Shown: positions 1 through 20,522 of the stretch, one piece after another
How the letters are laid out: the number at the start of each line of letters is the position of its first letter
Numbering within the stretch: the first letter of the stretch is position 1
Virus record (IMG/VR): IMGVR_UViG_644736362_000006
Source of the DNA: a virus
Taxonomy: Duplodnaviria > Heunggongvirae > Uroviricota > Caudoviricetes
DNA: 42,891 nt
Reading direction: 5' to 3' (one strand)
Program-made: the position numbers and the translations under genes
Notes under the pieces: model-generated
Told to the model about the DNA's origin: nothing
What the model saw: the letters and a program-made list of their open reading frames with translations, nothing else
Database searches by the model: none

Positions 1-591
1 TTATACGGCTTTTTTTACCTCCTGTGGTTCCTGTGAAGGTACTACAACACTTTCCTGTTCATGAATCCCATACTTTGACAAAATCTCTTTGCGTTTTTCT
101 TCAGGTAATGCATCTAGCATCATCAACGTCTGAATACTTTGCTGTGAAAATCCTATAAAGCTGTAAAGTTTCTGTTCATTAAATACAAGAGGCATTAACG
201 CCAACAACCCCCCTTTACTTAAAAGTTTCAGTGCCTTGCGTGCTTCATCTGGTTCCAGCTCTTCAATCATATTGATTAAGGTTGTGGTTAATTTGTTTAT
301 CAGTTCCGAAGAATCCTGTTTCTCATTGGCTTGAGCACCAGTATCCGGTGTGGATAACCCCAAGTGCGCAATAACTTGCTCTCGTTCTTTGGTGGGCATC
401 GACATCACATCGTATTCAACAGCTTTCCCCCCCTTGACACCTTCCTTTTTTTGCTTCGTCCAGCCTTGAACATTTGCTCGATAGTGAACACCAGCAACAG
501 ATCCAGGCATACCATCAGCAGCCATAATTTCTTGCGGCGAACACCAAATTGACTTTTCAGTATTATTCTTTTCTATAAAGTTACTTTTCAA
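1..591 (-). CDS. c: Phage Mu repressor c, complete 196 aa (stop codon at 1-3); codon 47 is Gln
   Basis: Minus-strand ORF translation MKSNFIEKNNTEKSIWCSPQEIMAADGMPG... recognised as Mu Repc; gene is divergent from ner as in the Mu left end. Confidence 0.9.
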   Translation of the reverse strand: MKSNFIEKNNTEKSIWCSPQEIMAADGMPGSVAGVHYRANVQGWTKQKKEGVKGGKAVEYDVMSMPTKEREQVIAHLGLSTPDTGAQANEKQDSSELINKLTTTLINMIEELEPDEARKALKLLSKGGLLALMPLVFNEQKLYSFIGFSQQSIQTLMMLDALPEEKRKEILSKYGIHEQESVVVPSQEPQEVKKAV

Positions 592-760
592 AATTTAAAC
601 TCCTTATTTATCAACGCGTTAATCAGTAATCAAAGGAATTTACCAAAAAGCAGCTTTACAAAAAGCTTTTCAGTAATTATCTTTTTAGTAAGCTAGCTAA
701 GTTTTTACACTTAGTTAAATTGCTAACTTTATAGATTACAAAACTTAGGAGGGTTTTTAA
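592..760. promoter_or_regulatory. Mu early operator/promoter region (O1-O3 with Pe and Pc, IHF site) between divergent c and ner
   Basis: AT-rich 170 bp divergent intergenic region between c and ner, with palindromic agctttacaaaaagctttt element; individual operator boundaries not resolved. Confidence 0.6.
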
Positions 761-988
761 ATGTGTTCCAACGAAAAGGCCCGTGATTGGCATCGTGCGG
801 ATGTGATTGCGGGACTTAAGAAAAGAAAGCTCTCTTTATCAGCTCTTTCCCGGCAGTTTGGTTATGCGCCAACTACATTAGCTAATGCGCTAGAACGACA
901 CTGGCCAAAGGGTGAGCAGATTATTGCTAACGCCTTAGAAACTAAACCGGAAGTAATCTGGCCTAGCCGATATCAAGCAGGTGAATAA
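761..988 (+). CDS. ner: Phage Mu Ner, early lytic regulator, 75 aa
   Basis: ORF translation [48 protein letters not shown]... recognised as Mu Ner. Confidence 0.92.
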
Positions 989-989
989 C

Positions 990-2798
990 ATGGAACTTTG
1001 GGTATCACCGAAAGAGTGTGCGAATCTTCCTGGTTTGCCGAAAACATCGGCTGGTGTGATTTATGTTGCTAAAAAGCAAGGATGGCAAAACCGCACTAGA
1101 GCAGGTGTCAAAGGTGGTAAAGCAATTGAATACAATGCGAACTCTTTACCTGTTGAAGCGAAAGCGGCGTTATTGCTGAGACAAGGAGAGATTGAAACAA
1201 GCCTGGGGTATTTTGAAATCGCCCGCCCCACGCTGGAAGCCCATGATTATGATCGTGAGGCACTGTGGAGCAAATGGGATAACGCCAGCGATTCCCAGCG
1301 CAGACTTGCTGAAAAATGGTTGCCTGCGGTTCAGGCTGCAGACGAAATGCTGAACCAGGGGATTTCAACGAAAACGGCTTTTGCGACCGTTGCAGGGCAT
1401 TACCAGGTCAGCGCATCCACTTTGCGGGACAAGTATTACCAGGTACAGAAGTTTGCGAAGCCTGACTGGGCGGCTGCACTTGTTGATGGACGTGGAGCAT
1501 CCCGTCGCAATGTTCACAAAAGTGAATTTGACGAGGATGCCTGGCAGTTTCTGATTGCAGATTATCTGCGACCGGAAAAACCCGCTTTCCGCAAATGTTA
1601 TGAGCGTCTGGAACTGGCAGCCCGCGAGCATGGCTGGAGTATTCCCTCCCGTGCCACGGCCTTTCGCCGGATTCAGCAACTGGACGAGGCAATGGTTGTT
1701 GCCTGTCGTGAAGGTGAACATGCACTGATGCATCTGATACCGGCACAGCAGCGAACTGTGGAACACCTGGACGCCATGCAGTGGATCAACGGCGACGGTT
1801 ATCTGCATAACGTCTTTGTACGCTGGTTTAACGGTGATGTGATCCGTCCGAAAACATGGTTCTGGCAGGATGTGAAAACCCGAAAAATTCTGGGCTGGCG
1901 CTGCGATGTGAGCGAGAACATTGATTCAATTCGCCTCTCGTTCATGGATGTTGTGACTCGCTACGGTATCCCGGAGGATTTTCACATCACCATTGATAAC
2001 ACCCGTGGTGCTGCGAATAAATGGCTGACGGGAGGCGCGCCCAATCGCTACCGCTTTAAGGTAAAAGAGGACGATCCAAAAGGACTGTTTTTACTGATGG
2101 GGGCGAAAATGCACTGGACAAGCGTTGTTGCCGGTAAAGGCTGGGGCCAGGCAAAACCTGTTGAACGTGCTTTCGGTGTTGGTGGGCTTGAGGAATACGT
2201 TGATAAGCATCCGGCACTGGCTGGCGCATATACGGGGCCAAATCCGTAGGCAAAACCTGATAACTATGGCGACCGCGCTGTTGATGCAGAGCTGTTTCTG
2301 AAAACCCTTGCCGAAGGTGTGGCGATGTTCAATGCCAGAACAGGCCGTGAAACAGAAATGTGCGGGGGCAAACTCTCGTTTGATGATGTTTTCGAGCGTG
2401 AATACGCCAGAACGATTGTGCGTAAGCCAACCGAAGAACAAAAACGGATGCTGTTACTGCCTGCCGAGGCGGTGAACGTTTCACGCAAAGGCGAGTTTAC
2501 GCTTAAAGTTGGCGGCTCCCTTAAAGGCGCGAAAAACGTTTATTACAACATGGCATTAATGAATGCCGGCGTGAAAAAAGTTGTGGTCAGGTTTGATCCG
2601 CAGCAGCTACACAGCACGGTTTATTGCTACACCCTGGACGGTCGGTTTATCTGTGAAGCGGAATGTCTGGCACCTGTTGCATTTAATGATGCTGCGGCAG
2701 GCCGTGAATATCGCCGCCGCCAGAAACAACTGAAATCTGCGACGAAAGCAGCCATTAAGGCGCAGAAACAAATGGACGCGCTGGAAGTTGCTGAACTG
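990..2798 (+). pseudogene. A: Phage Mu transposase A, 3'-truncated (A') and interrupted by an in-frame TAG at 2247-2249 (codon 420); lacks the C-terminal domain
   Basis: ATG at 990 gives [32 protein letters not shown]...; the 422-aa and 220-aa track ORFs are in the same frame separated only by TAG; Mu-like reading stops near 2796 where antisense lambda ea22 begins. Confidence 0.85.
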
Positions 2799-3209
2799 CT
2801 GCCGCAGAAACTCTTCCAGGTCACCAGTGCAGTGCTTGATAACAGGAGTCTTCCCAGGATGGCGAACAACAAGAAACTGGTTTCCGTCTTCACGGACTTC
2901 GTTGCTTTCCAGTTTAGCAATACGCTTACTCCCATCCGAGATAACACCTTCGTAATACTCACGCTGCTCGTTGAGTTTTGATTTTGCTGTTTCAAGCTCA
3001 ACACGCAGTTTCCCTACTGTTAGCGCAATATCCTCGTTCTCCTGGTCGCGGCGTTTGATGTATTGCTGGTTTCTTTCCCGTTCATCCAGCAGTTCCAGCA
3101 CAATCGATGGTGTTACCAATTCATGGAAAAGGTCTGCGTCAAATCCCCAGTCGTCATGCATTGCCTGCTCTGCCGCTTCACGCAGTGCCTGAGAGTTAAT
3201 TTCGCTCAC
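2797..3209 (-). CDS. ea22: Lambda Ea22, N-terminal about 138 codons only (3'-truncated at the Mu A' junction)
   Basis: Minus ORF begins [28 protein letters not shown]...; expected stop for a 182-aa Ea22 near 2661 is missing and the ORF runs into antisense Mu A. Confidence 0.7.
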
Positions 3210-3427
3210 TTCGAACCTCTCTGTTTACTGATAAGTTCCAGATCCTCCTGGCAACTTGCACAAGTCCGACAACCCTGAACGACCAGGCGTCTTCGTTCAT
3301 CTATCGGATCGCCACACTCACAACAATGAGTGGCAGATATAGCCTGGTGGTTCAGGCGGCGCATTTTTATTGCTGTGTTGCGCTGTAATTCTTCTATTTC
3401 TGATGCTGAATCAATGATGTCTGCCAT
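3206..3427 (-). CDS. Lambda Orf73, TraR/DksA-like C4 zinc-finger protein, 73 aa
   Basis: ORF with CxxC...CxxC spacing (CCECGDPIDERRRLVVQGCRTCASCQ); position immediately upstream of ea22. Confidence 0.75.
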   Translation of the reverse strand: MADIIDSASEIEELQRNTAIKMRRLNHQAISATHCCECGDPIDERRRLVVQGCRTCASCQEDLELISKQRGSK

Positions 3428-3652
3428 CTTTCATTAATCCCTGAACTGTTGGTTAATACGCTTGAGGGTGAATGCGAATAATAAAAAAGGAGCCTGTAGC
3501 TCCCTGATGATTTTGCTTTTCATGTTCATCGTTCCTTAAAGACGCCGTTTAACATGCCGATTGCCAGGCTTAAATGAGTCGGTGTGAATCCCATCAGCGT
3601 TACCGTTTCGCGGTGCTTCTTCAGTACGCTACGGCAAATGTCATCGACGTTT

Positions 3653-3838
3653 TTATCCGGAAACTGCTGTCTGGCTTTTTTTGATTTCAGAATTAGCCTG
3701 ACGGGCAATGCTGCGAAGGGCGTTTTCCTGCTGAGGTGTCATTGAACAAGTCCCATGTCGGCAAGCATAAGCACACAGAATATGAAGCCCGCTGCCAGAA
3801 AAATGCATTCCGTGGTTGTCATACCTGGTCTCTCTCAT
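3653..3838 (-). CDS. Lambda Orf61
   Basis: 61-aa ORF in expected position and orientation between ea22 and exo. Confidence 0.7.
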   Translation of the reverse strand: MRETRYDNHGMHFSGSGLHILCAYACRHGTCSMTPQQENALRSIARQANSEIKKSQTAVSG

Positions 3839-4010
3839 CTGCTTCTGCTTTCGCCACCATCATTTCCAGCTTTTGTGAAAGGGATGCGGCTAACGTATGA
3901 AATTCTTCGTCTGTTTCTACTGGTATTGGCACAAACCTGATTCCAATTTGAGCAAGGCTATGTGCCATCTCGATACTCGTTCTTAACTCAACAGAAGATG
4001 CTTTGTGCAT
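3819..4010 (-). CDS. Lambda Orf63
   Basis: 63-aa [26 protein letters not shown]... overlapping orf61 and orf60a as in lambda. Confidence 0.75.
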   Translation of the reverse strand: MHKASSVELRTSIEMAHSLAQIGIRFVPIPVETDEEFHTLAASLSQKLEMMVAKAEADERDQV

Positions 4011-4165
4011 ACAGCCCCTCGTTTATTATTTATCTCCTCAGCCAGCCGCTGTGCTTTCAGTGGATTTCGGATAACAGAAAGGCCGGGAAATACCCAGCCT
4101 CGCTTTGTAACGGAGTAGACGAAAGTGATTGCGCCTACCCGGATATTATCGTGAGGATGCGTCAT
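3983..4165 (-). CDS. Lambda Orf60a
   Basis: 60-aa ORF from the second Met of the track ORF, start overlapping the exo stop. Confidence 0.7.
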
Positions 4166-4842
4166 CGCCATTGCTCCCCAAATACAAAACCAATTTCAGC
4201 CAGTGCCTCGTCCATTTTTTCGATGAACTCCGGCACGATCTCGTCAAAACTCGCCATGTACTTTTCATCCCGCTCAATCACGACATAATGCAGGCCTTCA
4301 CGCTTCATACGCGGGTCATAGTTGGCAAAGTACCAGGCATTTTTTCGCGTCACCCACATGCTGTACTGCACCTGGGCCATGTAAGCTGACTTTATGGCCT
4401 CGAAACCACCGAGCCGGAACTTCATGAAATCCCGGGAGGTAAACGGGCATTTCAGTTCAAGGCCGTTGCCGTCACTGCATAAACCATCGGGAGAGCAGGC
4501 GGTACGCATACTTTCGTCGCGATAGATGATCGGGGATTCAGTAACATTCACGCCGGAAGTGAATTCAAACAGGGTTCTGGCGTCGTTCTCGTACTGTTTT
4601 CCCCAGGCCAGTGCTTTAGCGTTAACTTCCGGAGCCACACCGGTGCAAACCTCAGCAAGCAGGGTGTGGAAGTAGGACATTTTCATGTCAGGCCACTTCT
4701 TTCCGGAGCGGGGTTTTGCTATCACGTTGTGAACTTCTGAAGCGGTGATGACGCCGAGCCGTAATTTGTGCCACGCATCATCCCCCTGTTCGACAGCTCT
4801 CACATCGATCCCGGTACGCTGCAGGATAATGTCCGGTGTCAT
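4162..4842 (-). CDS. exo: Lambda exonuclease (Red alpha), 226 aa
   Basis: [68 protein letters not shown]... recognised as lambda Exo. Confidence 0.97.
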
Positions 4843-5624
4843 GCTGCCACCTTCTGCTCTGCGGCTTTCTGTTTCAGGAATCCAAGAGCTTTTACTGCTT
4901 CGGCCTGTGTCAGTTCTGACGATGCACGAATGTCGCGGCGAAATATCTGGGAACAGAGCGGCAATAAGTCGTCATCCCATGTTTTATCCAGGGCGATCAG
5001 CAGAGTGTTAATCTCCTGCATGGTTTCATCGTTAACCGGAGTGATGTCGCGTTCCGGCTGACGTTCTGCAGTGTATGCAGTATTTTCGACAATGCGCTCG
5101 GCTTCATCCTTGTCATAGATACCAGCAAATCCGAAGGCCAGACGGGCACACTGAATCATGGCTTTATGACGTAACATCCGTTTGGGATGCGACTGCCACG
5201 GCCCCGTGATTTCTCTGCCTTCGCGAGTTTTGAATGGTTCGCGGCGGCATTCATCCATCCATTCGGTAACGCAGATCGGATGATTACGGTCCTTGCGGTA
5301 AATCCGGCATGTACAGGATTCATTGTCCTGCTCAAAGTCCATGCCATCAAACTGCTGGTTTTCATTGATGATGCGGGACCAGCCATCAACGCCCACCACC
5401 GGAACGATGCCATTCTGCTTATCAGGAAAGGCGTAAATTTCTTTCGTCCACGGATTAAGGCCGTACTGGTTGGCAACGATCAGTAATGCGATGAACTGCG
5501 CATCGCTGGCATCACCTTTAAATGCCGTCTGGCGAAGAGTGGTGATCAGTTCCTGTGGGTCGACAGAATCCATGCCGACACGTTCAGCCAGCTTCCCAGC
5601 CAGCGTTGCGAGTGCAGTACTCAT
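4839..5624 (-). CDS. bet: Lambda Bet (Red beta) single-strand annealing protein, 261 aa
   Basis: [69 protein letters not shown]... recognised as lambda Bet. Confidence 0.97.
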
Positions 5625-5629
5625 TCGTT

Positions 5630-6046
5630 TTATACCTCTGAATCAATATCAACCTGGTGGTGAGCAATGGTTTCAACCATGTACCGGATGTGTTCTGCCA
5701 TGCGCTCCTGAAACTCAACATCGTCATCAAACGCACGGGTAATGGATTTTTTGCTGGCCCCGTGGCGTTGCAAATGATCGATGCATAGCGATTCAAACAG
5801 GTGCTGGGGCAGGCCTTTTTCCATGTCGTCTGCCAGTTCTGCCTCTTTCTCTTCACGGGCGAGCTGCTGGTAGTGACGCGCCCAGCTCTGAGCCTCAAGA
5901 CGATCCTGAATGTAATAAGCGTTCATGGCTGAACTCCTGAAATAGCTGTGAAAATATCGCCCGCGAAATGCCGGGCTGATTAGGAAAACAGGAAAGGGGG
6001 TTAGTGAATGCTTTTGCTTGATCTCAGTTTCAGTATTAATATCCAT
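5630..6046 (-). CDS. gam: Lambda Gam, RecBCD inhibitor, 138 aa
   Basis: [90 protein letters not shown]... recognised as lambda Gam. Confidence 0.97.
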
Positions 6047-6144
6047 TTTTTATAAGCGTCGACGGCTTCACGAAACATCTTTTCATCGCCAATAAAAGTG
6101 GCGATAGTGAATTTAGTCTGGATAGCCATAAGTGTTTGATCCAT
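6001..6144 (-). CDS. kil: Lambda Kil, 47 aa
   Basis: Internal Met of track ORF 6001..6270 gives [47 protein letters not shown]. Confidence 0.85.
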
Positions 6145-6277
6145 TCTTTGGGACTCCTGGCTGATTAAGTATGTCGATAAGGCGTTTCCATCCGTCACGT
6201 AATTTACGGGTGATTCGTTCAAGTAAAGATTCGGAAGGGCAGCCAGCAACAGGCCACCCTGCAATGGCATATTGCAT
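6113..6277 (-). CDS. cIII: Lambda CIII, 54 aa (below the ORF-track length cutoff)
   Basis: Reverse complement from 6277 reads ATGCAATATGCCATTGCAGGGTGGCCT... = [54 protein letters not shown], stop at 6113-6115. Confidence 0.9.
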   Translation of the reverse strand: MQYAIAGWPVAGCPSESLLERITRKLRDGWKRLIDILNQPGVPKNGSNTYGYPD

Positions 6278-6334
6278 GGTGTGCTCCTTATTTATACATA
6301 ACGAAAAACGCCTCGACCTGCAGGGGGGGGGGGG

Positions 6335-6560
6335 CGCTGAGGTCTGCCTCGTGAAGAAGGTGTTGCTGACTCATACCAGGCCTGAATCGCCCCATCATCC
6401 AGCCAGAAAGTGAGGGAGCCACGGTTGATGAGAGCTTTGTTGTAGGTGGACCAGTTGGTGATTTTGAACTTTTGCTTTGCCACGGAACGGTCTGCGTTGT
6501 CGGGAAGATGCGTGATCTGATCCTTCAACTCAGCAAAAGTTCGATTTATTCAACAAAGCC
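6335..6560 (-). mobile_element. IS903 end fragment: terminal inverted repeat (6543-6560) plus first ~65 codons of the transposase, truncated at the G tail
   Basis: Reverse complement of 6543-6560 is ggctttgttgaataaatc; minus ORF MKDQITHLPDNADRSVAKQKFKITNWSTYNKALINRGSLTFWLDDGAIQAWYE then runs into poly-G. Confidence 0.8.
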
Positions 6561-6620
6561 GCCGTCCCGTCAAGTCAGCGTAATGCTCTGCCAGTGTTAC
6601 AACCAATTAACCAATTCTGA

Positions 6621-7436
6621 TTAGAAAAACTCATCGAGCATCAAATGAAACTGCAATTTATTCATATCAGGATTATCAATACCATATTTTTGAAAAAGCC
6701 GTTTCTGTAATGAAGGAGAAAACTCACCGAGGCAGTTCCATAGGATGGCAAGATCCTGGTATCGGTCTGCGATTCCGACTCGTCCAACATCAATACAACC
6801 TATTAATTTCCCCTCGTCAAAAATAAGGTTATCAAGTGAGAAATCACCATGAGTGACGACTGAATCCGGTGAGAATGGCAAAAGCTTATGCATTTCTTTC
6901 CAGACTTGTTCAACAGGCCAGCCATTACGCTCGTCATCAAAATCACTCGCATCAACCAAACCGTTATTCATTCGTGATTGCGCCTGAGCGAGACGAAATA
7001 CGCGATCGCTGTTAAAAGGACAATTACAAACAGGAATCGAATGCAACCGGCGCAGGAACACTGCCAGCGCATCAACAATATTTTCACCTGAATCAGGATA
7101 TTCTTCTAATACCTGGAATGCTGTTTTCCCGGGGATCGCAGTGGTGAGTAACCATGCATCATCAGGAGTACGGATAAAATGCTTGATGGTCGGAAGAGGC
7201 ATAAATTCCGTCAGCCAGTTTAGTCTGACCATCTCATCTGTAACATCATTGGCAACGCTACCTTTGCCATGTTTCAGAAACAACTCTGGCGCATCGGGCT
7301 TCCCATACAATCGATAGATTGTCGCACCTGATTGCCCGACATTATCGCGAGCCCATTTATACCCATATAAATCAGCATCCATGTTGGAATTTAATCGCGG
7401 CCTCGAGCAAGACGTTTCCCGTTGAATATGGCTCAT
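6621..7436 (-). CDS. aph(3')-Ia: Aminoglycoside 3'-phosphotransferase APH(3')-Ia (kanamycin/neomycin resistance, Tn903 type), 271 aa
   Basis: ORF MSHIQRETSCSRPRLNSNMDADLYGYKWARDNVGQSGATIYRLYGKPDAPELFLKHGKGSVANDVTDEMVRLNWLTEFMPLPTIKHF... recognised as APH(3')-Ia. Confidence 0.97.
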   Translation of the reverse strand: MSHIQRETSCSRPRLNSNMDADLYGYKWARDNVGQSGATIYRLYGKPDAPELFLKHGKGSVANDVTDEMVRLNWLTEFMPLPTIKHFIRTPDDAWLLTTAIPGKTAFQVLEEYPDSGENIVDALAVFLRRLHSIPVCNCPFNSDRVFRLAQAQSRMNNGLVDASDFDDERNGWPVEQVWKEMHKLLPFSPDSVVTHGDFSLDNLIFDEGKLIGCIDVGRVGIADRYQDLAILWNCLGEFSPSLQKRLFQKYGIDNPDMNKLQFHLMLDEFF

Positions 7437-7599
7437 AACACCCCTTGTATTACTGTTTATGTAAGCAGACAGTTTTATTGTTCATGATGATATATTTTTA
7501 TCTTGTGCAATGTAACATCAGAGATTTTGAGACACAACGTGGCTTTCCCCCCCCCCTGCAGGTCGAGTGAAGCGTTATTGGTATGCGGTAAAACCGCAC

Positions 7600-7968
7600 T
7601 CAGGCGGCCTTGATAGTCATATCATCTGAATCAAATATTCCTGATGTATCGATATCGGTAATTCTTATTCCTTCGCTACCATCCATTGGAGGCCATCCTT
7701 CCTGACCATTTCCATCATTCCAGTCGAACTCACACACAACACCATATGCATTTAAGTCGCTTGAAATTGCTATAAGCAGAGCATGTTGCGCCAGCATGAT
7801 TAATACAGCATTTAATACAGAGCCGTGTTTATTGAGTCGGTATTCAGAGTCTGACCAGAAATTATTAATCTGGTGAAGTTTTTCCTCTGTCATTACGTCA
7901 TGGTCGATTTCAATTTCTATTGATGCTTTCCAGTCGTAATCAATGATGTATTTTTTGATGTTTGACAT
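7600..7968 (-). CDS. ea10: Lambda Ea10, 122 aa
   Basis: ORF MSNIKKYIIDYDWKASIEIEIDHDVMTEEKLHQINNFWSDSEYRLNKHGSVLNAVLIMLAQ... recognised as lambda Ea10. Confidence 0.9.
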   Translation of the reverse strand: MSNIKKYIIDYDWKASIEIEIDHDVMTEEKLHQINNFWSDSEYRLNKHGSVLNAVLIMLAQHALLIAISSDLNAYGVVCEFDWNDGNGQEGWPPMDGSEGIRITDIDTSGIFDSDDMTIKAA

Positions 7969-8150
7969 CTGTTCATATCCTCACAGATAAAAAATCGCCC
8001 TCACACTGGAGGGCAAAGAAGATTTCCAATAATCAGAACAAGTCGGCTCCTGTTTAGTTACGAGCGACATTGCTCCGTGTATTCACTCGTTGGAATGAAT
8101 ACACAGTGCAGTGTTTATTCTGTTATTTATGCCAAAAATAAAGGCCACTA

Positions 8151-8351
8151 TCAGGCAGCTTTGTTGTTCTGTTTACCAAGTTCTCTGGCAATCATTGCCG
8201 TCGTTCGTATTGCCCATTTATCGACATATTTCCCATCTTCCATTACAGGAAACATTTCTTCAGGCTTAACCATGCATTCCGATTGCAGCTTGCATCCATT
8301 GCATCGCTTGAATTGTCCACACCATTGATTTTTATCAATAGTCGTAGTCAT
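8151..8351 (-). CDS. ral: Lambda Ral, restriction alleviation, 66 aa
   Basis: ORF MTTTIDKNQWCGQFKRCNGCKLQSECMVKPEEMFPVMEDGKYVDKWAIRTTAMIARELGKQNNKAA. Confidence 0.92.
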   Translation of the reverse strand: MTTTIDKNQWCGQFKRCNGCKLQSECMVKPEEMFPVMEDGKYVDKWAIRTTAMIARELGKQNNKAA

Positions 8352-8545
8352 ACGGATAGTCCTGGTATTGTTCCATCACATCCTGAGGATGCTCTTCGAA
8401 CTCTTCAAATTCTTCTTCCATATATCACCTTAAATAGTGGATTGCGGTAGTAAAGATTGTGCCTGTCTTTTAACCACATCAGGCTCGGTGGTTCTCGTGT
8501 ACCCCTACAGCGAGAAATCGGATAAACTATTACAACCCCTACAGT

Positions 8546-9100
8546 TTGATGAGTATAGAAATGGATCCACTCGTTATTCTCGGACGAGTGTTCAGTAATG
8601 AACCTCTGGAGAGAACCATGTATATGATCGTTATCTGGGTTGGACTTCTGCTTTTAAGCCCAGATAACTGGCCTGAATATGTTAATGAGAGAATCGGTAT
8701 TCCTCATGTGTGGCATGTTTTCGTCTTTGCTCTTGCATTTTCGCTAGCAATTAATGTGCATCGATTATCAGCTATTGCCAGCGCCAGATATAAGCGATTT
8801 AAGCTAAGAAAACGCATTAAGATGCAAAACGATAAAGTGCGATCAGTAATTCAAAACCTTACAGAAGAGCAATCTATGGTTTTGTGCGCAGCCCTTAATG
8901 AAGGCAGGAAGTATGTGGTTACATCAAAACAATTCCCATACATTAGTGAGTTGATTGAGCTTGGTGTGTTGAACAAAACTTTTTCCCGATGGAATGGGAA
9001 GCATATATTATTCCCTATTGAGGATATTTACTGGACTGAATTAGTTGCCAGCTATGATCCATATAATATTGAGATAAAGCCAAGGCCAATATCTAAGTAA
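8546..9100 (+). CDS. sieB: Lambda SieB, superinfection exclusion protein
   Basis: ORF MMSIEMDPLVILGRVFSNEPLERTMYMIVIWVGLLLLSPDNWPEYVNERIGIPHVWHVFVFALAF..., on the strand opposite N as in lambda. Confidence 0.9.
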   Translation: MMSIEMDPLVILGRVFSNEPLERTMYMIVIWVGLLLLSPDNWPEYVNERIGIPHVWHVFVFALAFSLAINVHRLSAIASARYKRFKLRKRIKMQNDKVRSVIQNLTEEQSMVLCAALNEGRKYVVTSKQFPYISELIELGVLNKTFSRWNGKHILFPIEDIYWTELVASYDPYNIEIKPRPISK

Positions 9101-9424
9101 CTAGATAAGAGGAATCGATTTTCCCTTAATTTTCTGGCGTCCACTGCATGTTATGCCGCGTTCGCCAGGCTTGCTGTACCATGTGCGCTGATTCTTGCGC
9201 TCAATACGTTGCAGGTTGCTTTCAATCTGTTTGTGGTATTCAGCCAGCACTGTAAGGTCTATCGGATTTAGTGCGCTTTCTACTCGTGATTTCGGTTTGC
9301 GATTCAGCGAGAGAATAGGGCGGTTAACTGGTTTTGCGCTTACCCCAACCAACAGGGGATTTGCTGCTTTCCATTGAGCCTGTTTCTCTGCGCGACGTTC
9401 GCGGCGGCGTGTTTGTGCATCCAT
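9101..9424 (-). CDS. N: Lambda N antiterminator, 107 aa
   Basis: Internal Met of track ORF gives MDAQTRRRERRAEKQAQWKAANPLLVGVSAKPVNRPILSLNRKPKSRVESALNPIDLTVLAEYHKQIESNLQRIERKNQRTWYSKPGERGITCSGRQKIKGKSIPLI. Confidence 0.95.
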   Translation of the reverse strand: MDAQTRRRERRAEKQAQWKAANPLLVGVSAKPVNRPILSLNRKPKSRVESALNPIDLTVLAEYHKQIESNLQRIERKNQRTWYSKPGERGITCSGRQKIKGKSIPLI

Positions 9425-9574
9425 CTGGATTCTCCTGTCAGTTAGCTTTGGTGGTGTGTGGCAGTTGTAGTCCTGAACGAAAACCCCCCGCGATTGGCAC
9501 ATTGGCAGCTAATCCGGAATCGCACTTACGGCCAATGCTTCGTTTCGTATCACACACCCCAAAGCCTTCTGCTT

Positions 9575-9614
9575 TGAATGCTGCCCTTCTTCAGGGCTTA
9601 ATTTTTAAGAGCGT
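9575..9614 (-). promoter_or_regulatory. nutL (boxA and boxB) N-utilisation site
   Basis: Minus strand contains boxB hairpin gccctgaagaagggc (9578-9594) and boxA cgctcttaa (9606-9614). Confidence 0.85.
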
Positions 9615-9645
9615 CACCTTCATGGTGGTCAGTGCGTCCTGCTGA

Positions 9646-9715
9646 TGTGCTCAGTATCACCGCCAGTGGTATTTATGTCAACACCGCCAGAGATAATTTA
9701 TCACCGCAGATGGTT
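9646..9715 (-). promoter_or_regulatory. pL promoter with operators oL1 (9655-9671), oL2 (9679-9695), oL3 (9699-9715)
   Basis: 17-bp operator sequences tatcaccgccagtggta, caacaccgccagagata, tatcaccgcagatggtt; -35 TTGACA and -10 GATACT on minus strand. Confidence 0.9.
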
Positions 9716-9888
9716 ATCTGTATGTTTTTTATATGAATTTATTTTTTGCAGGGGGGCATTGTTTGGTAGGTGAGAGATCTGAATTGCTATGTTTAGTGAG
9801 TTGTATCTATTTATTTTTCAATAAATACAATTGGTTATGTGTTTTGGGGGCGATCGTGAGGCAAAGAAAACCCGGCGCTGAGGCCGGG

Positions 9889-10323
9889 TTATTCTTGTTC
9901 TCTGGTCAAATTATATAGTTGGAAAACAAGGATGCATATATGAATGAACGATGCAGAGGCAATGCCGATGGCGATAGTGGGTATCATGTAGCCGCTTATG
10001 CTGGAAAGAAGCAATAACCCGCAGAAAAACAAAGCTCCAAGCTCAACAAAACTAAGGGCATAGACAATAACTACCGATGTCATATACCCATACTCTCTAA
10101 TCTTGGCCAGTCGGCGCGTTCTGCTTCCGATTAGAAACGTCAAGGCAGCAATCAGGATTGCAATCATGGTTCCTGCATATGATGACAATGTCGCCCCAAG
10201 ACCATCTCTATGAGCTGAAAAAGAAACACCAGGAATGTAGTGGCGGAAAAGGAGATAGCAAATGCTTACGATAACGTAAGGAATTATTACTATGTAAACA
10301 CCAGGCATGATTCTGTTCCGCAT
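9889..10323 (-). CDS. rexB: Lambda RexB, 144 aa membrane protein
   Basis: ORF MRNRIMPGVYIVIIPYVIVSICYLLFRHYIPGVSFSAHRDGLGATLSSYAGTMIAILIAALTF... Confidence 0.95.
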   Translation of the reverse strand: MRNRIMPGVYIVIIPYVIVSICYLLFRHYIPGVSFSAHRDGLGATLSSYAGTMIAILIAALTFLIGSRTRRLAKIREYGYMTSVVIVYALSFVELGALFFCGLLLLSSISGYMIPTIAIGIASASFIHICILVFQLYNLTREQE

Positions 10324-10338
10324 AATTACTCCTGATAA

Positions 10339-11178
10339 TTAATCCTTAACTTTGCCCACCTGCCTTTTAAAACATTCCAGTATATCACTTTTCATTCTTG
10401 CGTAGCAATATGCCATCTCTTCAGCTATCTCAGCATTGGTGACCTTGTTCAGAGGCGCTGAGAGATGGCCTTTTTCTGATAGATAATGTTCTGTTAAAAT
10501 ATCTCCGGCCTCATCTTTTGCCCGCAGGCTAATGTCTGAAAATTGAGGTGACGGGTTAAAAATAATATCCTTGGCAACCTTTTTTATATCCCTTTTAAAT
10601 TTTGGCTTAATGACTATATCCAATGAGTCAAAAAGCTCCCCTTCAATATCTGTTGCCCCTAAGACCTTTAATATATCGCCAAATACAGGTAGCTTGGCTT
10701 CTACCTTCACCGTTGTTCGGCCGATGAAATGCATATGCATAACATCGTCTTTGGTGGTTCCCCTCATCAGTGGCTCTATCTGAACGCGCTCTCCACTGCT
10801 TAATGACATTCCTTTCCCGATTAAAAAATCTGTCAGATCGGATGTGGTCGGCCCGAAAACAGTTCTGGCAAAACCAATGGTGTCGCCTTCAACAAACAAA
10901 AAAGATGGGAATCCCAATGATTCGTCATCTGCGAGGCTGTTCTTAATATCTTCAACTGAAGCTTTAGAGCGATTTATCTTCTGAACCAGACTCTTGTCAT
11001 TTGTTTTGGTAAAGAGAAAAGTTTTTCCATCGATTTTATGAATATACAAATAATTGGAGCCAACCTGCAGGTGATGATTATCAGCCAGCAGAGAATTAAG
11101 GAAAACAGACAGGTTTATTGAGCGCTTATCTTTCCCTTTATTTTTGCTGCGGTAAGTCGCATAAAAACCATTCTTCAT
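10339..11178 (-). CDS. rexA: Lambda RexA, 279 aa
   Basis: ORF MKNGFYATYRSKNKGKDKRSINLSVFLNSLLADNHHLQVGSNYLYIHKIDGKTFLFTKTNDKSLVQKINRSKASVEDIKN... Confidence 0.95.
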   Translation of the reverse strand: MKNGFYATYRSKNKGKDKRSINLSVFLNSLLADNHHLQVGSNYLYIHKIDGKTFLFTKTNDKSLVQKINRSKASVEDIKNSLADDESLGFPSFLFVEGDTIGFARTVFGPTTSDLTDFLIGKGMSLSSGERVQIEPLMRGTTKDDVMHMHFIGRTTVKVEAKLPVFGDILKVLGATDIEGELFDSLDIVIKPKFKRDIKKVAKDIIFNPSPQFSDISLRAKDEAGDILTEHYLSEKGHLSAPLNKVTNAEIAEEMAYCYARMKSDILECFKRQVGKVKD

Positions 11179-11290
11179 AATTCAATCCATTTACTATGTT
11201 ATGTTCTGAGGGGAGTGAAAATTCCCCTAATTCGATGAAGATTCTTGCTCAATTGTTATCAGCTATGCGCCGACCAGAACACCTTGCCGA

Positions 11291-12007
<717 letters not shown>

Positions 12008-12014
12008 TTAAATC

Positions 12015-12090
12015 TATCACCGCAAGGGATAAATATCTAACACCGTGCGTGTTGACTATTTTACCTCTGGCGGTGATAATGGTTGCATGT
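12015..12090. promoter_or_regulatory. oR3-oR2-oR1 operators with divergent pRM and pR promoters
   Basis: tatcaccgcaagggata (12015-12031), taacaccgtgcgtgttg (12038-12054), tacctctggcggtgata (12062-12078); pR -35 ttgact and -10 gataat. Confidence 0.92.
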
Positions 12091-12095
12091 ACTAA

Positions 12096-12305
<210 letters not shown>

Positions 12306-12312
12306 ATAACCC

Positions 12313-12344
12313 CGCTCTTACACATTCCAGCCCTGAAAAAGGGC
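12313..12344 (+). promoter_or_regulatory. nutR (boxA cgctctta, boxB gccctgaaaaagggc)
   Basis: boxA at 12313-12320 and boxB hairpin at 12330-12344 immediately downstream of cro. Confidence 0.88.
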
Positions 12345-12404
12345 ATCAAATTAAACCACACCTATGGTGTATGCATTTATTTGCATACATTCAATCAATT
12401 GTTA

Positions 12405-12445
12405 TCTAAGGAAATACTTACATATGGTTCGTGCAAACAAACGCA
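12405..12445 (-). promoter_or_regulatory. pRE promoter with CII binding site (TTGC-N6-TTGC) overlapping the cII start
   Basis: Minus strand ttgcgtttgtttgc at 12432-12445, inside the first cII codons. Confidence 0.7.
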
Positions 12446-12717
12446 ACGAGGCTCTACGAATCGAGAGTGCGTTGCTTAACAAAATCGCAATGCTTGGAAC
12501 TGAGAAGACAGCGGAAGCTGTGGGCGTTGATAAGTCGCAGATCAGCAGGTGGAAGAGGGACTGGATTCCAAAGTTCTCAATGCTGCTTGCTGTTCTTGAA
12601 TGGGGGGTCGTTGACGACGACATGGCTCGATTGGCGCGACAAGTTGCTGCGATTCTCACCAATAAAAAACGCCCGGCGGCAACCGAGCGTTCTGAACAAA
12701 TCCAGATGGAGTTCTGA
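12424..12717 (+). CDS. cII: Lambda CII transcriptional activator, 97 aa
   Basis: Internal Met of track ORF gives MVRANKRNEALRIESALLNKIAMLGTEKTAEAVGVDKSQISRWKRDWIPKFSMLLAVLEWGVVDDDMARLARQVAAILTNKKRPAATERSEQIQMEF. Confidence 0.95.
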   Translation: MVRANKRNEALRIESALLNKIAMLGTEKTAEAVGVDKSQISRWKRDWIPKFSMLLAVLEWGVVDDDMARLARQVAAILTNKKRPAATERSEQIQMEF

Positions 12718-12739
12718 GGTCATTACTGGATCTATCAAC
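12663..12739 (-). ncRNA. oop: oop antisense RNA (about 77 nt) ending at the to terminator
   Basis: Minus-strand GC hairpin followed by T run (reverse complement of aataaaaaacgcccggcggcaacc at 12661-12684), located between cII 3' end and O start; ends placed from remembered lambda coordinates. Confidence 0.6.
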
Positions 12740-12749
12740 AGGAGTCATT

Positions 12750-13649
12750 ATGACAAATACAGCAAAAATACTCAACTTCGGCAGAGGTAACTTTGCCGGA
12801 CAGGAGCGTAATGTGGCAGATCTCGATGATGGTTACGCCAGACTATCAAATATGCTGCTTGAGGCTTATTCGGGCGCAGATCTGACCAAGCGACAGTTTA
12901 AAGTGCTGCTTGCCATTCTGCGTAAAACCTATGGGTGGAATAAACCAATGGACAGAATCACCGATTCTCAACTTAGCGAGATTACAAAGTTACCTGTCAA
13001 ACGGTGCAATGAAGCCAAGTTAGAACTCGTCAGAATGAATATTATCAAGCAGCAAGGCGGCATGTTTGGACCAAATAAAAACATCTCAGAATGGTGCATC
13101 CCTCAAAACGAGGGAAAATCCCCTAAAACGAGGGATAAAACATCCCTCAAATTGGGGGATTGCTATCCCTCAAAACAGGGGGACACAAAAGACACTATTA
13201 CAAAAGAAAAAAGAAAAGATTATTCGTCAGAGAATTCTGGCGAATCCTCTGACCAGCCAGAAAACGACCTTTCTGTGGTGAAACCGGATGCTGCAATTCA
13301 GAGCGGCAGCAAGTGGGGGACAGCAGAAGACCTGACCGCCGCAGAGTGGATGTTTGACATGGTGAAGACTATCGCACCATCAGCCAGAAAACCGAATTTT
13401 GCTGGGTGGGCTAACGATATCCGCCTGATGCGTGAACGTGACGGACGTAACCACCGCGACATGTGTGTGCTGTTCCGCTGGGCATGCCAGGACAACTTCT
13501 GGTCCGGTAACGTGCTGAGCCCGGCCAAACTCCGCGATAAGTGGACCCAACTCGAAATCAACCGTAACAAGCAACAGGCAGGCGTGACAGCCAGCAAACC
13601 AAAACTCGACCTGACAAACACAGACTGGATTTACGGGGTGGATCTATGA
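12750..13649 (+). CDS. O: Lambda O replication initiator, 299 aa
   Basis: ORF MTNTAKILNFGRGNFAGQERNVADLDDGYARLSNMLLEAYSGADLTKRQFKVLLAILRKTYGWNKPMDRITDSQLSEITKLPVKRCNEAK... Confidence 0.97.
   Translation: MTNTAKILNFGRGNFAGQERNVADLDDGYARLSNMLLEAYSGADLTKRQFKVLLAILRKTYGWNKPMDRITDSQLSEITKLPVKRCNEAKLELVRMNIIKQQGGMFGPNKNISEWCIPQNEGKSPKTRDKTSLKLGDCYPSKQGDTKDTITKEKRKDYSSENSGESSDQPENDLSVVKPDAAIQSGSKWGTAEDLTAAEWMFDMVKTIAPSARKPNFAGWANDIRLMRERDGRNHRDMCVLFRWACQDNFWSGNVLSPAKLRDKWTQLEINRNKQQAGVTASKPKLDLTNTDWIYGVDL
13098..13230. other. ori lambda: four ~19-bp O-binding iterons followed by an AT-rich unwinding region
   Basis: Repeats catccctcaaaacgaggga / aatcccctaaaacgagggat / catccctcaaattgggggat / tatccctcaaaacaggggga, then A-rich tract aaaagaaaaaagaaaag. 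Confidence 0.9.
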
Positions 13650-14347
13650 AAAACATCGCCGCACAGATGGTTAACTTTGACCGTGAGCAGATGCGTCGGA
13701 TCGCCAACAACATGCCGGAACAGTACGACGAAAAGCCGCAGGTACAGCAGGTAGCGCAGATCATCAACGGTGTGTTCAGCCAGTTACTGGCAACTTTCCC
13801 GGCGAGCCTGGCTAACCGTGACCAGAACGAAGTGAACGAAATCCGTCGCCAGTGGGTTCTGGCTTTTCGGGAAAACGGGATCACCACGATGGAACAGGTT
13901 AACGCAGGAATGCGCGTAGCCCGTCGGCAGAATCGACCATTTCTGCCATCACCCGGGCAGTTTGTTGCATGGTGCCGGGAAGAAGCATCCGTTACCGCCG
14001 GACTGCCAAACGTCAGCGAGCTGGTTGATATGGTTTACGAGTATTGCCGGAAGCGAGGCCTGTATCCGGATGCGGAGTCTTATCCGTGGAAATCAAACGC
14101 GCACTACTGGCTGGTTACCAACCTGTATCAGAACATGCGGGCCAATGCGCTTACTGATGCGGAATTACGCCGTAAGGCCGCAGATGAGCTTGTCCATATG
14201 ACTGCGAGAATTAACCGTGGTGAGGCGATCCCTGAACCAGTAAAACAACTTCCTGTCATGGGCGGTAGACCTCTAAATCGTGCACAGGCTCTGGCGAAGA
14301 TCGCAGAAATCAAAGCTAAGTTCGGACTGAAAGGAGCAAGTGTATGA
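13646..14347 (+). CDS. P: Lambda P helicase loader, 233 aa
   Basis: ORF MKNIAAQMVNFDREQMRRIANNMPEQYDEKPQVQQVAQIINGVFSQLLATFPASLANRDQNEVNEIRRQWVLAFRENGITTMEQVN... Confidence 0.97.
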   Translation: MKNIAAQMVNFDREQMRRIANNMPEQYDEKPQVQQVAQIINGVFSQLLATFPASLANRDQNEVNEIRRQWVLAFRENGITTMEQVNAGMRVARRQNRPFLPSPGQFVAWCREEASVTAGLPNVSELVDMVYEYCRKRGLYPDAESYPWKSNAHYWLVTNLYQNMRANALTDAELRRKAADELVHMTARINRGEAIPEPVKQLPVMGGRPLNRAQALAKIAEIKAKFGLKGASV

Positions 14348-14634
14348 CGGGCAAAGAGGCAATTATTCATTACCTGGGGACGCATAATAGCTTCTGTGCG
14401 CCGGACGTTGCCGCGCTAACAGGCGCAACAGTAACCAGCATAAATCAGGCCGCGGCTAAAATGGCACGGGCAGGTCTTCTGGTTATCGAAGGTAAGGTCT
14501 GGCGAACGGTGTATTACCGGTTTGCTACCAGGGAAGAACGGGAAGGAAAGATGAGCACGAACCTGGTTTTTAAGGAGTGTCGCCAGAGTGCCGCGATGAA
14601 ACGGGTATTGGCGGTATATGGAGTTAAAAGATGA
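14344..14634 (+). CDS. ren: Lambda Ren, 96 aa
   Basis: ORF MTGKEAIIHYLGTHNSFCAPDVAALTGATVTSINQAAAKMARAGLLVIEGKVWRTVYYRFATREEREGK... Confidence 0.92.
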   Translation: MTGKEAIIHYLGTHNSFCAPDVAALTGATVTSINQAAAKMARAGLLVIEGKVWRTVYYRFATREEREGKMSTNLVFKECRQSAAMKRVLAVYGVKR

Positions 14635-14707
14635 CCATCTACATTACTGAGCTAATAACAGGCCTGCTGGTAATCGCAGGCCTTTTTATTTGGGGGAGAG
14701 GGAAGTC

Positions 14708-15148
14708 ATGAAAAAACTAACCTTTGAAATTCGATCTCCAGCACATCAGCAAAACGCTATTCACGCAGTACAGCAAATCCTTCCAGACCCAACCAAACCA
14801 ATCGTAGTAACCATTCAGGAACGCAACCGCAGCTTAGACCAAAACAGGAAGCTATGGGCCTGCTTAGGTGACGTCTCTCGTCAGGTTGAATGGCATGGTC
14901 GCTGGCTGGATGCAGAAAGCTGGAAGTGTGTGTTTACCGCAGCATTAAAGCAGCAGGATGTTGTTCCTAACCTTGCCGGGAATGGCTTTGTGGTAATAGG
15001 CCAGTCAACCAGCAGGATGCGTGTAGGCGAATTTGCGGAGCTATTAGAGCTTATACAGGCATTCGGTACAGAGCGTGGCGTTAAGTGGTCAGACGAAGCG
15101 AGACTGGCTCTGGAGTGGAAAGCGAGATGGGGAGACAGGGCTGCATGA
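14708..15148 (+). CDS. ninB: Lambda NinB (Orf recombination mediator), 146 aa
   Basis: Internal Met gives MKKLTFEIRSPAHQQNAIHAVQQILPDPTKPIVVTIQERNRSLDQNRKLWACLGDV... Confidence 0.92.
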   Translation: MKKLTFEIRSPAHQQNAIHAVQQILPDPTKPIVVTIQERNRSLDQNRKLWACLGDVSRQVEWHGRWLDAESWKCVFTAALKQQDVVPNLAGNGFVVIGQSTSRMRVGEFAELLELIQAFGTERGVKWSDEARLALEWKARWGDRAA

Positions 15149-16017
15149 TAAATGTCGTTAGTTTCTCCGGTGGCAGGACGTCAGCATATTTGCTCTGGCT
15201 AATGGAGCAAAAGCGACGGGCAGGTAAAGACGTGCATTACGTTTTCATGGATACAGGTTGTGAACATCCAATGACATATCGGTTTGTCAGGGAAGTTGTG
15301 AAGTTCTGGGATATACCGCTCACCGTATTGCAGGTTGATATCAACCCGGAGCTTGGACAGCCAAATGGTTATACGGTATGGGAACCAAAGGATATTCAGA
15401 CGCGAATGCCTGTTCTGAAGCCATTTATCGATATGGTAAAGAAATATGGCACTCCATACGTCGGCGGCGCGTTCTGCACTGACAGATTAAAACTCGTTCC
15501 CTTCACCAAATACTGTGATGACCATTTCGGGCGAGGGAATTACACCACGTGGATTGGCATCAGAGCTGATGAACCGAAGCGGCTAAAGCCAAAGCCTGGA
15601 ATCAGATATCTTGCTGAACTGTCAGACTTTGAGAAGGAAGATATCCTCGCATGGTGGAAGCAACAACCATTCGATTTGCAAATACCGGAACATCTCGGTA
15701 ACTGCATATTCTGCATTAAAAAATCAACGCAAAAAATCGGACTTGCCTGCAAAGATGAGGAGGGATTGCAGCGTGTTTTTAATGAGGTCATCACGGGATC
15801 CCATGTGCGTGACGGACATCGGGAAACGCCAAAGGAGATTATGTACCGAGGAAGAATGTCGCTGGACGGTATCGCGAAAATGTATTCAGAAAATGATTAT
15901 CAAGCCCTGTATCAGGACATGGTACGAGCTAAAAGATTCGATACCGGCTCTTGTTCTGAGTCATGCGAAATATTTGGAGGGCAGCTTGATTTCGACTTCG
16001 GGAGGGAAGCTGCATGA
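15145..16017 (+). CDS. ninC: Lambda NinC, 290 aa
   Basis: Internal Met gives [65 protein letters not shown]... Confidence 0.92.
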
Positions 16018-16187
16018 TGCGATGTTATCGGTGCGGTGAATGCAAAGAAGATAACCGCTTCCGACCAAATCAACCTTACTGGAATCGATGGTGTCTCCGG
16101 TGTGAAAGAACACCAACAGGGGTGTTACCACTACCGCAGGAAAAGGAGGACGTGTGGCGAGACAGCGACGAAGTATCACCGACATAA
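16014..16187 (+). CDS. ninD: Lambda NinD, 57 aa cysteine-rich protein (below ORF-track cutoff)
   Basis: Manual translation from ATG at 16014: [57 protein letters not shown], stop at 16185-16187. Confidence 0.8.
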
Positions 16188-16336
16188 TCTGCGAAAACTG
16201 CAAATACCTTCCAACGAAACGCACCAGAAATAAACCCAAGCCAATCCCAAAAGAATCTGACGTAAAAACCTTCAACTACACGGCTCACCTGTGGGATATC
16301 CGGTGGCTAAGACGTCGTGCGAGGAAAACAAGGTGA
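16154..16336 (+). CDS. ninE: Lambda NinE, 60 aa
   Basis: [63 protein letters not shown]. Confidence 0.85.
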
Positions 16337-16503
16337 TTGACCAAAATCGAAGTTACGAACAAGAAAGCGTCGAGCGAGCTTTAACGTGCGCTAACTGCGG
16401 TCAGAAGCTGCATGTGCTGGAAGTTCACGTGTGTGAGCACTGCTGCGCAGAACTGATGAGCGATCCGAATAGCTCGATGCACGAGGAAGAAGATGATGGC
16501 TAA
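16333..16503 (+). CDS. ninF: Lambda NinF; start uncertain (GTG at 16333 overlapping the ninE stop, or upstream ATG at 16291)
   Basis: Cysteine-rich ORF ...[55 protein letters not shown]. Confidence 0.7.
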
Positions 16504-17107
16504 ACCAGCGCGAAGACGATGTAAAAACGATGAATGCCGGGAATGGTTTCACCCTGCATTCGCTAATCAGTGGTGGTGCTCTCCAGAGTGTGGAACCAAG
16601 ATAGCACTCGAACGACGAAGTAAAGAACGCGAAAAAGCGGAAAAAGCAGCAGAGAAGAAACGACGACGAGAGGAGCAGAAACAGAAAGATAAACTTAAGA
16701 TTCGAAAACTCGCCTTAAAGCCCCGCAGTTACTGGATTAAACAAGCCCAACAAGCCGTAAACGCCTTCATCAGAGAAAGAGACCGCGACTTACCATGTAT
16801 CTCGTGCGGAACGCTCACGTCTGCTCAGTGGGATGCCGGACATTACCGGACAACTGCTGCGGCACCTCAACTCCGATTTAATGAACGCAATATTCACAAG
16901 CAATGCGTGGTGTGCAACCAGCACAAAAGCGGAAATCTCGTTCCGTATCGCGTCGAACTGATTAGCCGCATCGGGCAGGAAGCAGTAGACGAAATCGAAT
17001 CAAACCATAACCGCCATCGCTGGACTATCGAAGAGTGCAAGGCGATCAAGGCAGAGTACCAACAGAAACTCAAAGACCTGCGAAATAGCAGAAGTGAGGC
17101 CGCATGA
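16493..17107 (+). CDS. ninG: Lambda NinG (Rap), 204 aa
   Basis: [70 protein letters not shown]... Confidence 0.92.
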
Positions 17108-17310
17108 CGTTCTCAGTAAAAACCATTCCAGACATGCTCGTTGAAGCATACGGAAATCAGACAGAAGTAGCACGCAGACTGAAATGTAGTCGCGGTACGG
17201 TCAGAAAATACGTTGATGATAAAGACGGGAAAATGCACGCCATCGTCAACGACGTTCTCATGGTTCATCGCGGATGGAGTGAAAGAGATGCGCTATTACG
17301 AAAAAATTGA
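17104..17310 (+). CDS. ninH: Lambda NinH, 68 aa
   Basis: [71 protein letters not shown]. Confidence 0.9.
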
Positions 17311-17953
17311 TGGCAGCAAATACCGAAATATTTGGGTAGTTGGCGATCTGCACGGATGCTACACGAACCTGATGAACAAACTGGATACGATTGGATTCGA
17401 CAACAAAAAAGACCTGCTTATCTCGGTGGGCGATTTGGTTGATCGTGGTGCAGAGAACGTTGAATGCCTGGAATTAATCACATTCCCCTGGTTCAGAGCT
17501 GTACGTGGAAACCATGAGCAAATGATGATTGATGGCTTATCAGAGCGTGGAAACGTTAATCACTGGCTGCTTAATGGCGGTGGCTGGTTCTTTAATCTCG
17601 ATTACGACAAAGAAATTCTGGCTAAAGCTCTTGCCCATAAAGCAGATGAACTTCCGTTAATCATCGAACTGGTGAGCAAAGATAAAAAATATGTTATCTG
17701 CCACGCCGATTATCCCTTTGACGAATACGAGTTTGGAAAGCCAGTTGATCATCAGCAGGTAATCTGGAACCGCGAACGAATCAGCAACTCACAAAACGGG
17801 ATCGTGAAAGAAATCAAAGGCGCGGACACGTTCATCTTTGGTCATACGCCAGCAGTGAAACCACTCAAGTTTGCCAACCAAATGTATATCGATACCGGCG
17901 CAGTGTTCTGCGGAAACCTAACATTGATTCAGGTACAGGGAGAAGGCGCATGA
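17288..17953 (+). CDS. ninI: Lambda NinI Ser/Thr protein phosphatase, 221 aa
   Basis: Internal Met gives [63 protein letters not shown]... with GDLHG and GNHE phosphoesterase motifs. Confidence 0.92.
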
Positions 17954-18573
17954 GACTCGAAAGCGTAGCTAAATTTCATTCGCCAAAAAGCCCGATGATG
18001 AGCGACTCACCACGGGCCACGGCTTCTGACTCTCTTTCCGGTACTGATGTGATGGCTGCTATGGGGATGGCGCAATCACAAGCCGGATTCGGTATGGCTG
18101 CATTCTGCGGTAAGCACGAACTCAGCCAGAACGACAAACAAAAGGCTATCAACTATCTGATGCAATTTGCACACAAGGTATCGGGGAAATACCGTGGTGT
18201 GGCAAAGCTTGAAGGAAATACTAAGGCAAAGGTACTGCAAGTGCTCGCAACATTCGCTTATGCGGATTATTGCCGTAGTGCCGCGACGCCGGGGGCAAGA
18301 TGCAGAGATTGCCATGGTACAGGCCGTGCGGTTGATATTGCCAAAACAGAGCTGTGGGGGAGAGTTGTCGAGAAAGAGTGCGGAAGATGCAAAGGCGTCG
18401 GCTATTCAAGGATGCCAGCAAGCGCAGCATATCGCGCTGTGACGATGCTAATCCCAAACCTTACCCAACCCACCTGGTCACGCACTGTTAAGCCGCTGTA
18501 TGACGCTCTGGTGGTGCAATGCCACAAAGAAGAGTCAATCGCAGACAACATTTTGAATGCGGTCACACGTTAG
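17950..18573 (+). CDS. Q: Lambda Q late antiterminator, 207 aa
   Basis: [89 protein letters not shown]... Confidence 0.97.
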
Positions 18574-18615
18574 CAGCATGATTGCCACGGATGGCAACAT
18601 ATTAACGGCATGATA

Positions 18616-18644
18616 TTGACTTATTGAATAAAATTGGGTAAATT
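18616..18644 (+). promoter_or_regulatory. pR' late promoter (-35 ttgact, 17-bp spacer, -10 taaatt) with overlapping qut site
   Basis: ttgact at 18616-18621 and taaatt at 18639-18644, directly downstream of Q. Confidence 0.8.
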
Positions 18645-18651
18645 TGACTCA

Positions 18652-20491: not shown

Positions 20492-20522
20492 AGTTGCCCA
20501 TATCGATGGGCAACTCATGCAA

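Follow-up and report, generated by a model that had tools for sequence, protein, structure and literature searches.

A homopolymer-flanked Tn903 kanamycin-resistance cassette in the single XhoI site of a lambda placMu phage

The window analysed here, a stretch of 42,891 nucleotides recorded in IMG/VR as virus IMGVR_UViG_644736362_000006, carries a kanamycin-resistance insert in the non-coding gap between the lambda genes ea10 and cIII. Both neighboring genes are intact and on the minus strand. The cIII gene (positions 6113-6277) shows zero differences from lambda. The insertion is 36 bp away from the cIII start codon and, on its other side, 33 bp away from the stop codon of ea10 (ssb; 7600-7968).

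The core of the insert, 1213 bp at positions 6334-7546, matches the interior of Tn903 on pRK2013 (NZ_OQ536579.1) at 100% identity and corresponds there to positions 2501-3713 of the Tn903 locus (L007). It contains aph(3')-Ia, encoding a kanamycin/neomycin phosphotransferase of 271 amino acids, at 6621-7436 on the minus strand, codirectional with the lambda pL operon. The reading frame scored 649.9 bits against the NCBIfam model NF051474 for APH(3')-Ia (cutoff 625), and the gene is annotated at the same coordinates as WP_000018329.1. Together with its upstream region, aph makes up the unique central region of Tn903, which spans 980 bp at 6561-7540 on the minus strand and is 100% identical to L007 2728-3707. 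On pRK2013, Tn903 has two complete IS903 copies of 1057 bp in inverted orientation (L007 1671-2727 and 3708-4764), whereas the window holds the inner-end remnant of one copy, 227 bp at 6334-6560 on the minus strand (L007 2501-2727). Of the second copy only GGCTTT (7541-7546) is left, the opening 6 bp of its inverted repeat. The larger remnant includes the first approximately 65 transposase codons and, at 6543-6560, a terminal inverted repeat of 18 bp, and an ORF of 78 amino acids at 6292-6528 (minus strand) encodes an IS5-family transposase N-terminus. Since the transposase is non-functional and only one end is complete, the cassette cannot move as Tn903. Past GGCTTT, Tn903 continues with gttgaataaatcg and the window with a C tract, and the identity to Tn903 stops exactly at the start of the G and C tracts on the two sides. 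The left end point within Tn903 is aGCGCt, a HaeII-type site. An earlier, sequence-only reading of this DNA had described the payload as aph(3')-Ia plus an IS903 end fragment, in agreement with the NCBIfam match and with the 227 bp and 6 bp left of the IS903 copies.

Outside the Tn903 segment, the insert is bordered by homopolymer tracts and restriction sites. On the left, an XhoI/SalI hybrid junction, CTCGAC (6312-6317), takes its C and TCGA from the lambda XhoI site at 33498 and its last C from the SalI end of the cassette; it is followed by a PstI site, CTGCAG, of the cassette polylinker (6318-6323) and by a dG tract of 10 G (6324-6333), which extends to a run of 12 G when the G of the PstI site and the first G of Tn903 are included. 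By direct reading there are eleven G at 6324-6334, of which G 6334 is the first base of Tn903. On the right, a dC tract of 9 C (7547-7555; 10 C with the C of the PstI site) is followed by the second polylinker PstI site, CTGCAG (7556-7561), and by the SalI/XhoI hybrid junction GTCGAG (7562-7567), within which the match to lambda resumes at 7563 (lambda 33499). Both PstI sites were read directly, and every detail of the boundaries proposed from the letters, ctcgac-ctgcag-G11 and C9-ctgcag-gtcgag, was found in place. The 12-bp linkers on the two sides, CTCGACCTGCAG and CTGCAGGTCGAG, are exact reverse complements of each other, and the insert measures 1250 bp between the SalI-equivalent ends and 1238 bp as a PstI fragment. 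Cloning into a PstI site by dG/dC tailing characteristically leaves such G and C homopolymers beside regenerated PstI sites. The hexamers CTCGAC and GTCGAG are both common, occurring seven and five times in the window; the arrangement at the junctions is not due to chance, because here the half-sites flank 1213 bp of 100% Tn903 sequence at the one place where lambda is expected to have CTCGAG.

Comparison of the whole window with lambda J02459 by blastn gave three collinear blocks, window 2799-6316 (lambda 29985-33502), 7563-22566 (lambda 33499-48502), and 22567-42565 (lambda 1-19998). On the left of the insert the lambda match thus ends at 6316, and the two blocks adjoining the insert overlap by TCGA, lambda 33499-33502. 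CTCGAG, the XhoI sequence, occurs only once in lambda, at 33498, between cIII (lambda 33299-33463) and ea10 (lambda 33536-33904), in line with the position given in the sequence-only reading. Deletion of 6313-7562 (1250 bp) gives back CTCGAG in its exact lambda context. The presence of TCGA on both sides is accounted for by the joining of ends cut by SalI (G^TCGAC) and by XhoI (C^TCGAG), and is not a target duplication. The half-sites, the repeated TCGA, and the restored lambda sequence altogether uphold the proposal that a SalI fragment was inserted into an XhoI site. The opposite arrangement, an XhoI-cut insert in a SalI site, was rejected based on the lambda sequence at this position, which is CTCGAG and not GTCGAC; moreover, the lambda SalI sites (32745 and 33244) are intact at window 5559 and 6058, indicating that the SalI fragment entered the XhoI site and not the reverse. 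The only XhoI site remaining in the window is at 7402-7407, inside the cassette and upstream in the aph coding region, so that the engineered phage keeps one XhoI site at a moved position.

The same cassette, with the tails and the PstI/SalI linkers, is present as dam::kan in E. coli K-12 ER3413, where it differs from the insert by one extra C over 1254 bases and is flanked by GATCC-GTCGAC-CTGCAG-G12 on one side and C11-TGCAG-GTCGAC-GGATC on the other. The kanamycin cassette of Salmonella phage SopEPhi (AY319521), annotated as 'kanamycin resistance cassette that replaces sopE', is 99.3% identical, with the same ends and tails and two extra C. The identity of the 1213 bp with Tn903 of pRK2013, and of the tailed cassette with dam::kan of ER3413 except for one C, bears out the assignment of the insert to the laboratory Tn903 kan cassettes. 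The G tract is constant at 12 in the window, ER3413, and SopEPhi cassettes, and the C tract varies among the three, with 10, 11, and 12 C, respectively, when the PstI C is counted, the tract here being one to two bases shorter than in the other two copies. This variation in C-tract length could reflect slippage or homopolymer sequencing error. In ER2796/ER3413 (dam::kan) and in SopEPhi (sopE::aphT), the tailed cassette serves likewise as a selectable marker in a gene or prophage; the insertions in ER3413 and SopEPhi were made with other polylinker sites and keep the BamHI-side linker, whereas here SalI ends were joined to an intergenic XhoI site.

The plasmid pUC4K, reportedly described by Vieira and Messing in 1982, carries a Tn903 fragment that was dG/dC-tailed into the PstI site of a symmetric EcoRI-BamHI-SalI-PstI polylinker. 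The symmetric BamHI-SalI-PstI order around the cassette is, by established knowledge, that of pUC4K. As judged from its identity to such cassettes in laboratory strains and from the textbook polylinker, the insert is of the pUC4K type: it shares with the pUC4K cassette the 1213-bp Tn903 segment, the G and C tracts beside PstI, and the SalI position directly outside PstI, and differs in that the SalI sites are here SalI/XhoI hybrids. The SalI and PstI fragments of pUC4K, which we take to be about 1252 bp and 1240 bp, are 2 bp longer than those measured here, and this shortfall fits the homopolymer-length variation between copies.

Beyond the cassette, the window is not plain lambda but a hybrid of lambda, phage Mu, and the lac operon. 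Positions 1-2808 (plus strand) are 100% identical to the c-end segment of Mu, bases 339-3146 of AF083977, and contain the c repressor gene, cut by the edge of the window, ner, and a transposase A gene truncated at the 3' end. This segment joins lambda at 29985 via a shared 10-bp microhomology, CTGCCGCAGA. Lambda 19999-29984, including the b region, attP, int, and xis, is missing between window 2798/2799 and 42565/42566; without att-int-xis, the prophage has no integration or excision by the lambda pathway, and its integration depends on Mu transposition. At the other end of the window, 'lacA of E. coli K-12 (42566-42891, minus strand) is joined to lambda 19998, which lies inside stf/orf-401, via a shared CGTAACG, and this joint is a lambda plac5-type junction. 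An apparent divergence of lacA, suggested by the 98.6% identity at the window end, was discarded after inspection of the junction region (42559-42891), all mismatches being in the lambda part and lacA being 100% identical to K-12. The strand of lacA fits a lac operon that enters lambda leftward from outside the window; lacY, lacZ, and the Mu S end would lie past the window edge. Both cI and S show zero differences from the lambda reference, indicating lambda immunity and neither cI857 nor Sam7.

These features altogether identify the phage as a transposable lambda placMu fusion phage. The lambda placMu kan phages (placMu9, 15, 51, 53, and 55) were described by Bremer, Silhavy and Weinstock in J Bacteriol in 1985, in a paper whose abstract reportedly places kan between cIII and ssb (= ea10). 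The window agrees with these phages in the Mu c end with c, ner, and A beside lambda, in the absence of att-int-xis, in the position of kan between cIII and ea10 (ssb), and in lambda immunity; lacA beyond J-lom fits their lac operon, and nothing conflicting was found. The operon-fusion and protein-fusion types of placMu are told apart by the lacZ joint and the Mu S end, both of which lie outside the window. The earlier description as an engineered phage was therefore borne out; it had not recognized the lambda-Mu-lac context, which extends that description without contradicting it.

Apart from the engineered joints, the lambda part of the window shows further differences from J02459. Twenty-eight of the 31 substitutions in the right arm fall in window 21049-22550 (lambda 46985-48486, between bor and cos), a block 99.9% identical to ybcV-ybcW-ylcI of the K-12 cryptic prophage DLP12; this patch of approximately 1.5 kb near cos was evidently gained through homologous recombination with the host, and it may or may not have been present in the original placMu phage stock. 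A few substitutions fall outside the patch, and scattered single-base changes are seen, for example, at window 3830, 8998, 19682, 32593, 32801, 34407, 35817, and 39467. Three single-base indels were detected, a deleted G at lambda 138 and inserted Gs at lambda 14266/14267 and 14886 (window 22704, 36832, and 37452), of which at least the first two are probably among the known differences between the 1982 reference and resequenced lambda stocks.

A scan of IMG/VR with a 26-mer covering the left junction gave a single contig, IMGVR_UViG_3300001149_000060 (L008). Positions 587-9941 of this contig are identical to window 1-9355, with 0 mismatches over 9355 bp and the same junction. The contig in addition supplies Mu bases 1-338, the Mu c end starting with TGTATTGATTCAC at its base 249, and its leftmost 248 bp are 100% identical to malG on the minus strand. 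The Mu end thus abuts malG and not attB. Because malG is on the minus strand, the 5' end of the gene has to be located past the lac end of the prophage, and this placement is the arrangement that a malG-lacZ fusion requires. The strain BW2952 is MC4100 malG::lambda placMu55 Φ(malG::lacZ) (PMC3708739), and a lambda placMu prophage is contained in its genome (BWG_; PMC4986956). The IMG/VR contig is laboratory-strain DNA with the malG::lambda placMu arrangement of BW2952 that was entered as an uncultivated viral genome with a resistance gene, and BW2952 or another malG::lambda placMu55 strain is the probable source of the window itself. The insert junctions were found in none of the phage, plasmid, and complete E. 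coli genome collections and in none of the GTDB species representatives; the E. coli collection searched did not include BW2952 (NC_012759.1), which would explain the absence of the junctions from the E. coli genomes listed.

From the site structure, the Tn903 content, and the vector context, the insert is almost certainly a pUC4K-type SalI cassette that was ligated in vitro into the XhoI site (lambda 33498) of a lambda placMu phage, a man-made marker in a construct already described and not a natural event. A Tn903 piece, consisting of aph(3')-Ia with 227 bp and 6 bp of IS903, was dG/dC-tailed into the PstI site of a symmetric BamHI-SalI-PstI polylinker; the cassette was then cut out with SalI and ligated into XhoI-cut phage DNA, the two enzymes leaving compatible TCGA overhangs, and ligation destroyed both sites, leaving CTCGAC and GTCGAG. 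The order of parts in the recipient would have been Mu c end (c, ner, A'), lambda without att-int-xis, lac operon, and Mu S end, and in such a phage a kan marker would render Mu-mediated insertions of the phage selectable as kanamycin-resistant lysogens with any Lac phenotype.

The same sequence bears on three other explanations. Natural acquisition, in which Tn903 or IS903 transposed between cIII and ea10 and later decayed, would account for the genuine Tn903 sequence with an IS903 end and an intact 18-bp inverted repeat, and natural plasmids widely carry aph(3')-Ia together with IS903; the central 980 bp and the adjacent IS903 inner end are indeed 100% identical to those of natural Tn903 on pRK2013. 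However, the two IS903 copies, each 1057 bp when complete, are reduced to 227 bp and 6 bp, and the transposase to approximately 65 codons. Transposition of Tn903/IS903 makes 9-bp target duplications, and a search for flanking direct repeats of 4-12 bp at the insert edges gave none, TCGA alone being repeated on the two sides. On either side of the Tn903 part, moreover, a homopolymer (G or C), a PstI site, and a SalI half-site mirror each other perfectly in inverted orientation, the insert sits exactly in the only XhoI site of lambda, and the same artificial ends occur in unrelated laboratory constructs. With both complete IS903 copies and the 9-bp duplication absent, the marker had rightly been taken as a selectable one, and natural acquisition has a practically negligible probability. 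An artefact of assembly or sequencing, a chimeric contig of lambda with vector or cassette reads, might be considered from the absence of the junctions from all annotated records of the phage, plasmid, and complete E. coli genome collections and from the different homopolymer lengths of the cassette copies. Against this, both junctions are symmetric and chemically sensible and restore lambda exactly, the Mu c end, lac, and the deleted att-int form a coherent known vector, and the independently deposited IMG/VR contig is identical throughout the cassette and over the surrounding 9.3 kb, making such an artefact highly improbable.

The remaining explanation concerns the donor alone: the SalI fragment might have come from a derivative of pUC4K, an intermediate clone, or another plasmid with the same tailed Tn903 piece in a symmetric polylinker of the pUC7 type. 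Any plasmid with this cassette would give the same product, in which only the PstI and SalI half-sites, the tails, and Tn903 are visible. On the other side, the tailed Tn903 fragment with PstI-SalI-BamHI-EcoRI flanks originates, by established knowledge, from pUC4K, and dam::kan of ER3413 has the matching BamHI-SalI-PstI order. A different donor has a slight chance, and would change only the provenance and neither the nature of the feature nor the mechanism of its insertion. The ultimate source of the cassette would appear to be pUC4K itself.

In the repressed prophage, aph is likely expressed from its own Tn903 promoter. One candidate sigma-70 promoter for aph, GTTACA-18 nt-TATCAT, is located at 7487-7516 on the minus strand by consensus match; promoter-like sites are no more numerous in the region than expected from shuffled sequence, and the candidate is suggestive only. 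A scan of the 343 bp downstream from the aph stop codon to cIII detected no terminator-like site. In lytic growth, N-antiterminated transcription from pL would read through the co-oriented cassette, and the cIII-kil-gam-red functions would be retained. Since aph is codirectional with the pL operon and a terminator-like site before cIII was not found, read-through from the aph promoter is possible in the prophage as well. We consider it rather unlikely that constitutive read-through of this kind gives low-level expression of cIII-kil-gam-bet-exo in the repressed prophage, in which case the marker would not be phenotypically silent. If true, such read-through would have subtle effects on recombination, cell division, or the activity of FtsH, and would concern many lambda placMu kan strains, for instance, BW2952 and H1717.

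This virus record is thus laboratory-engineered DNA, and neither its resistance gene and IS903 fragment nor its Mu and lac segments should be taken as acquired by a phage through horizontal transfer in nature. The public IMG/VR collection contains the same engineered sequence, and DNA of a laboratory strain can pass there as an environmental phage carrying a resistance gene. Engineered sequences should be flagged, including those in viral metagenome collections.
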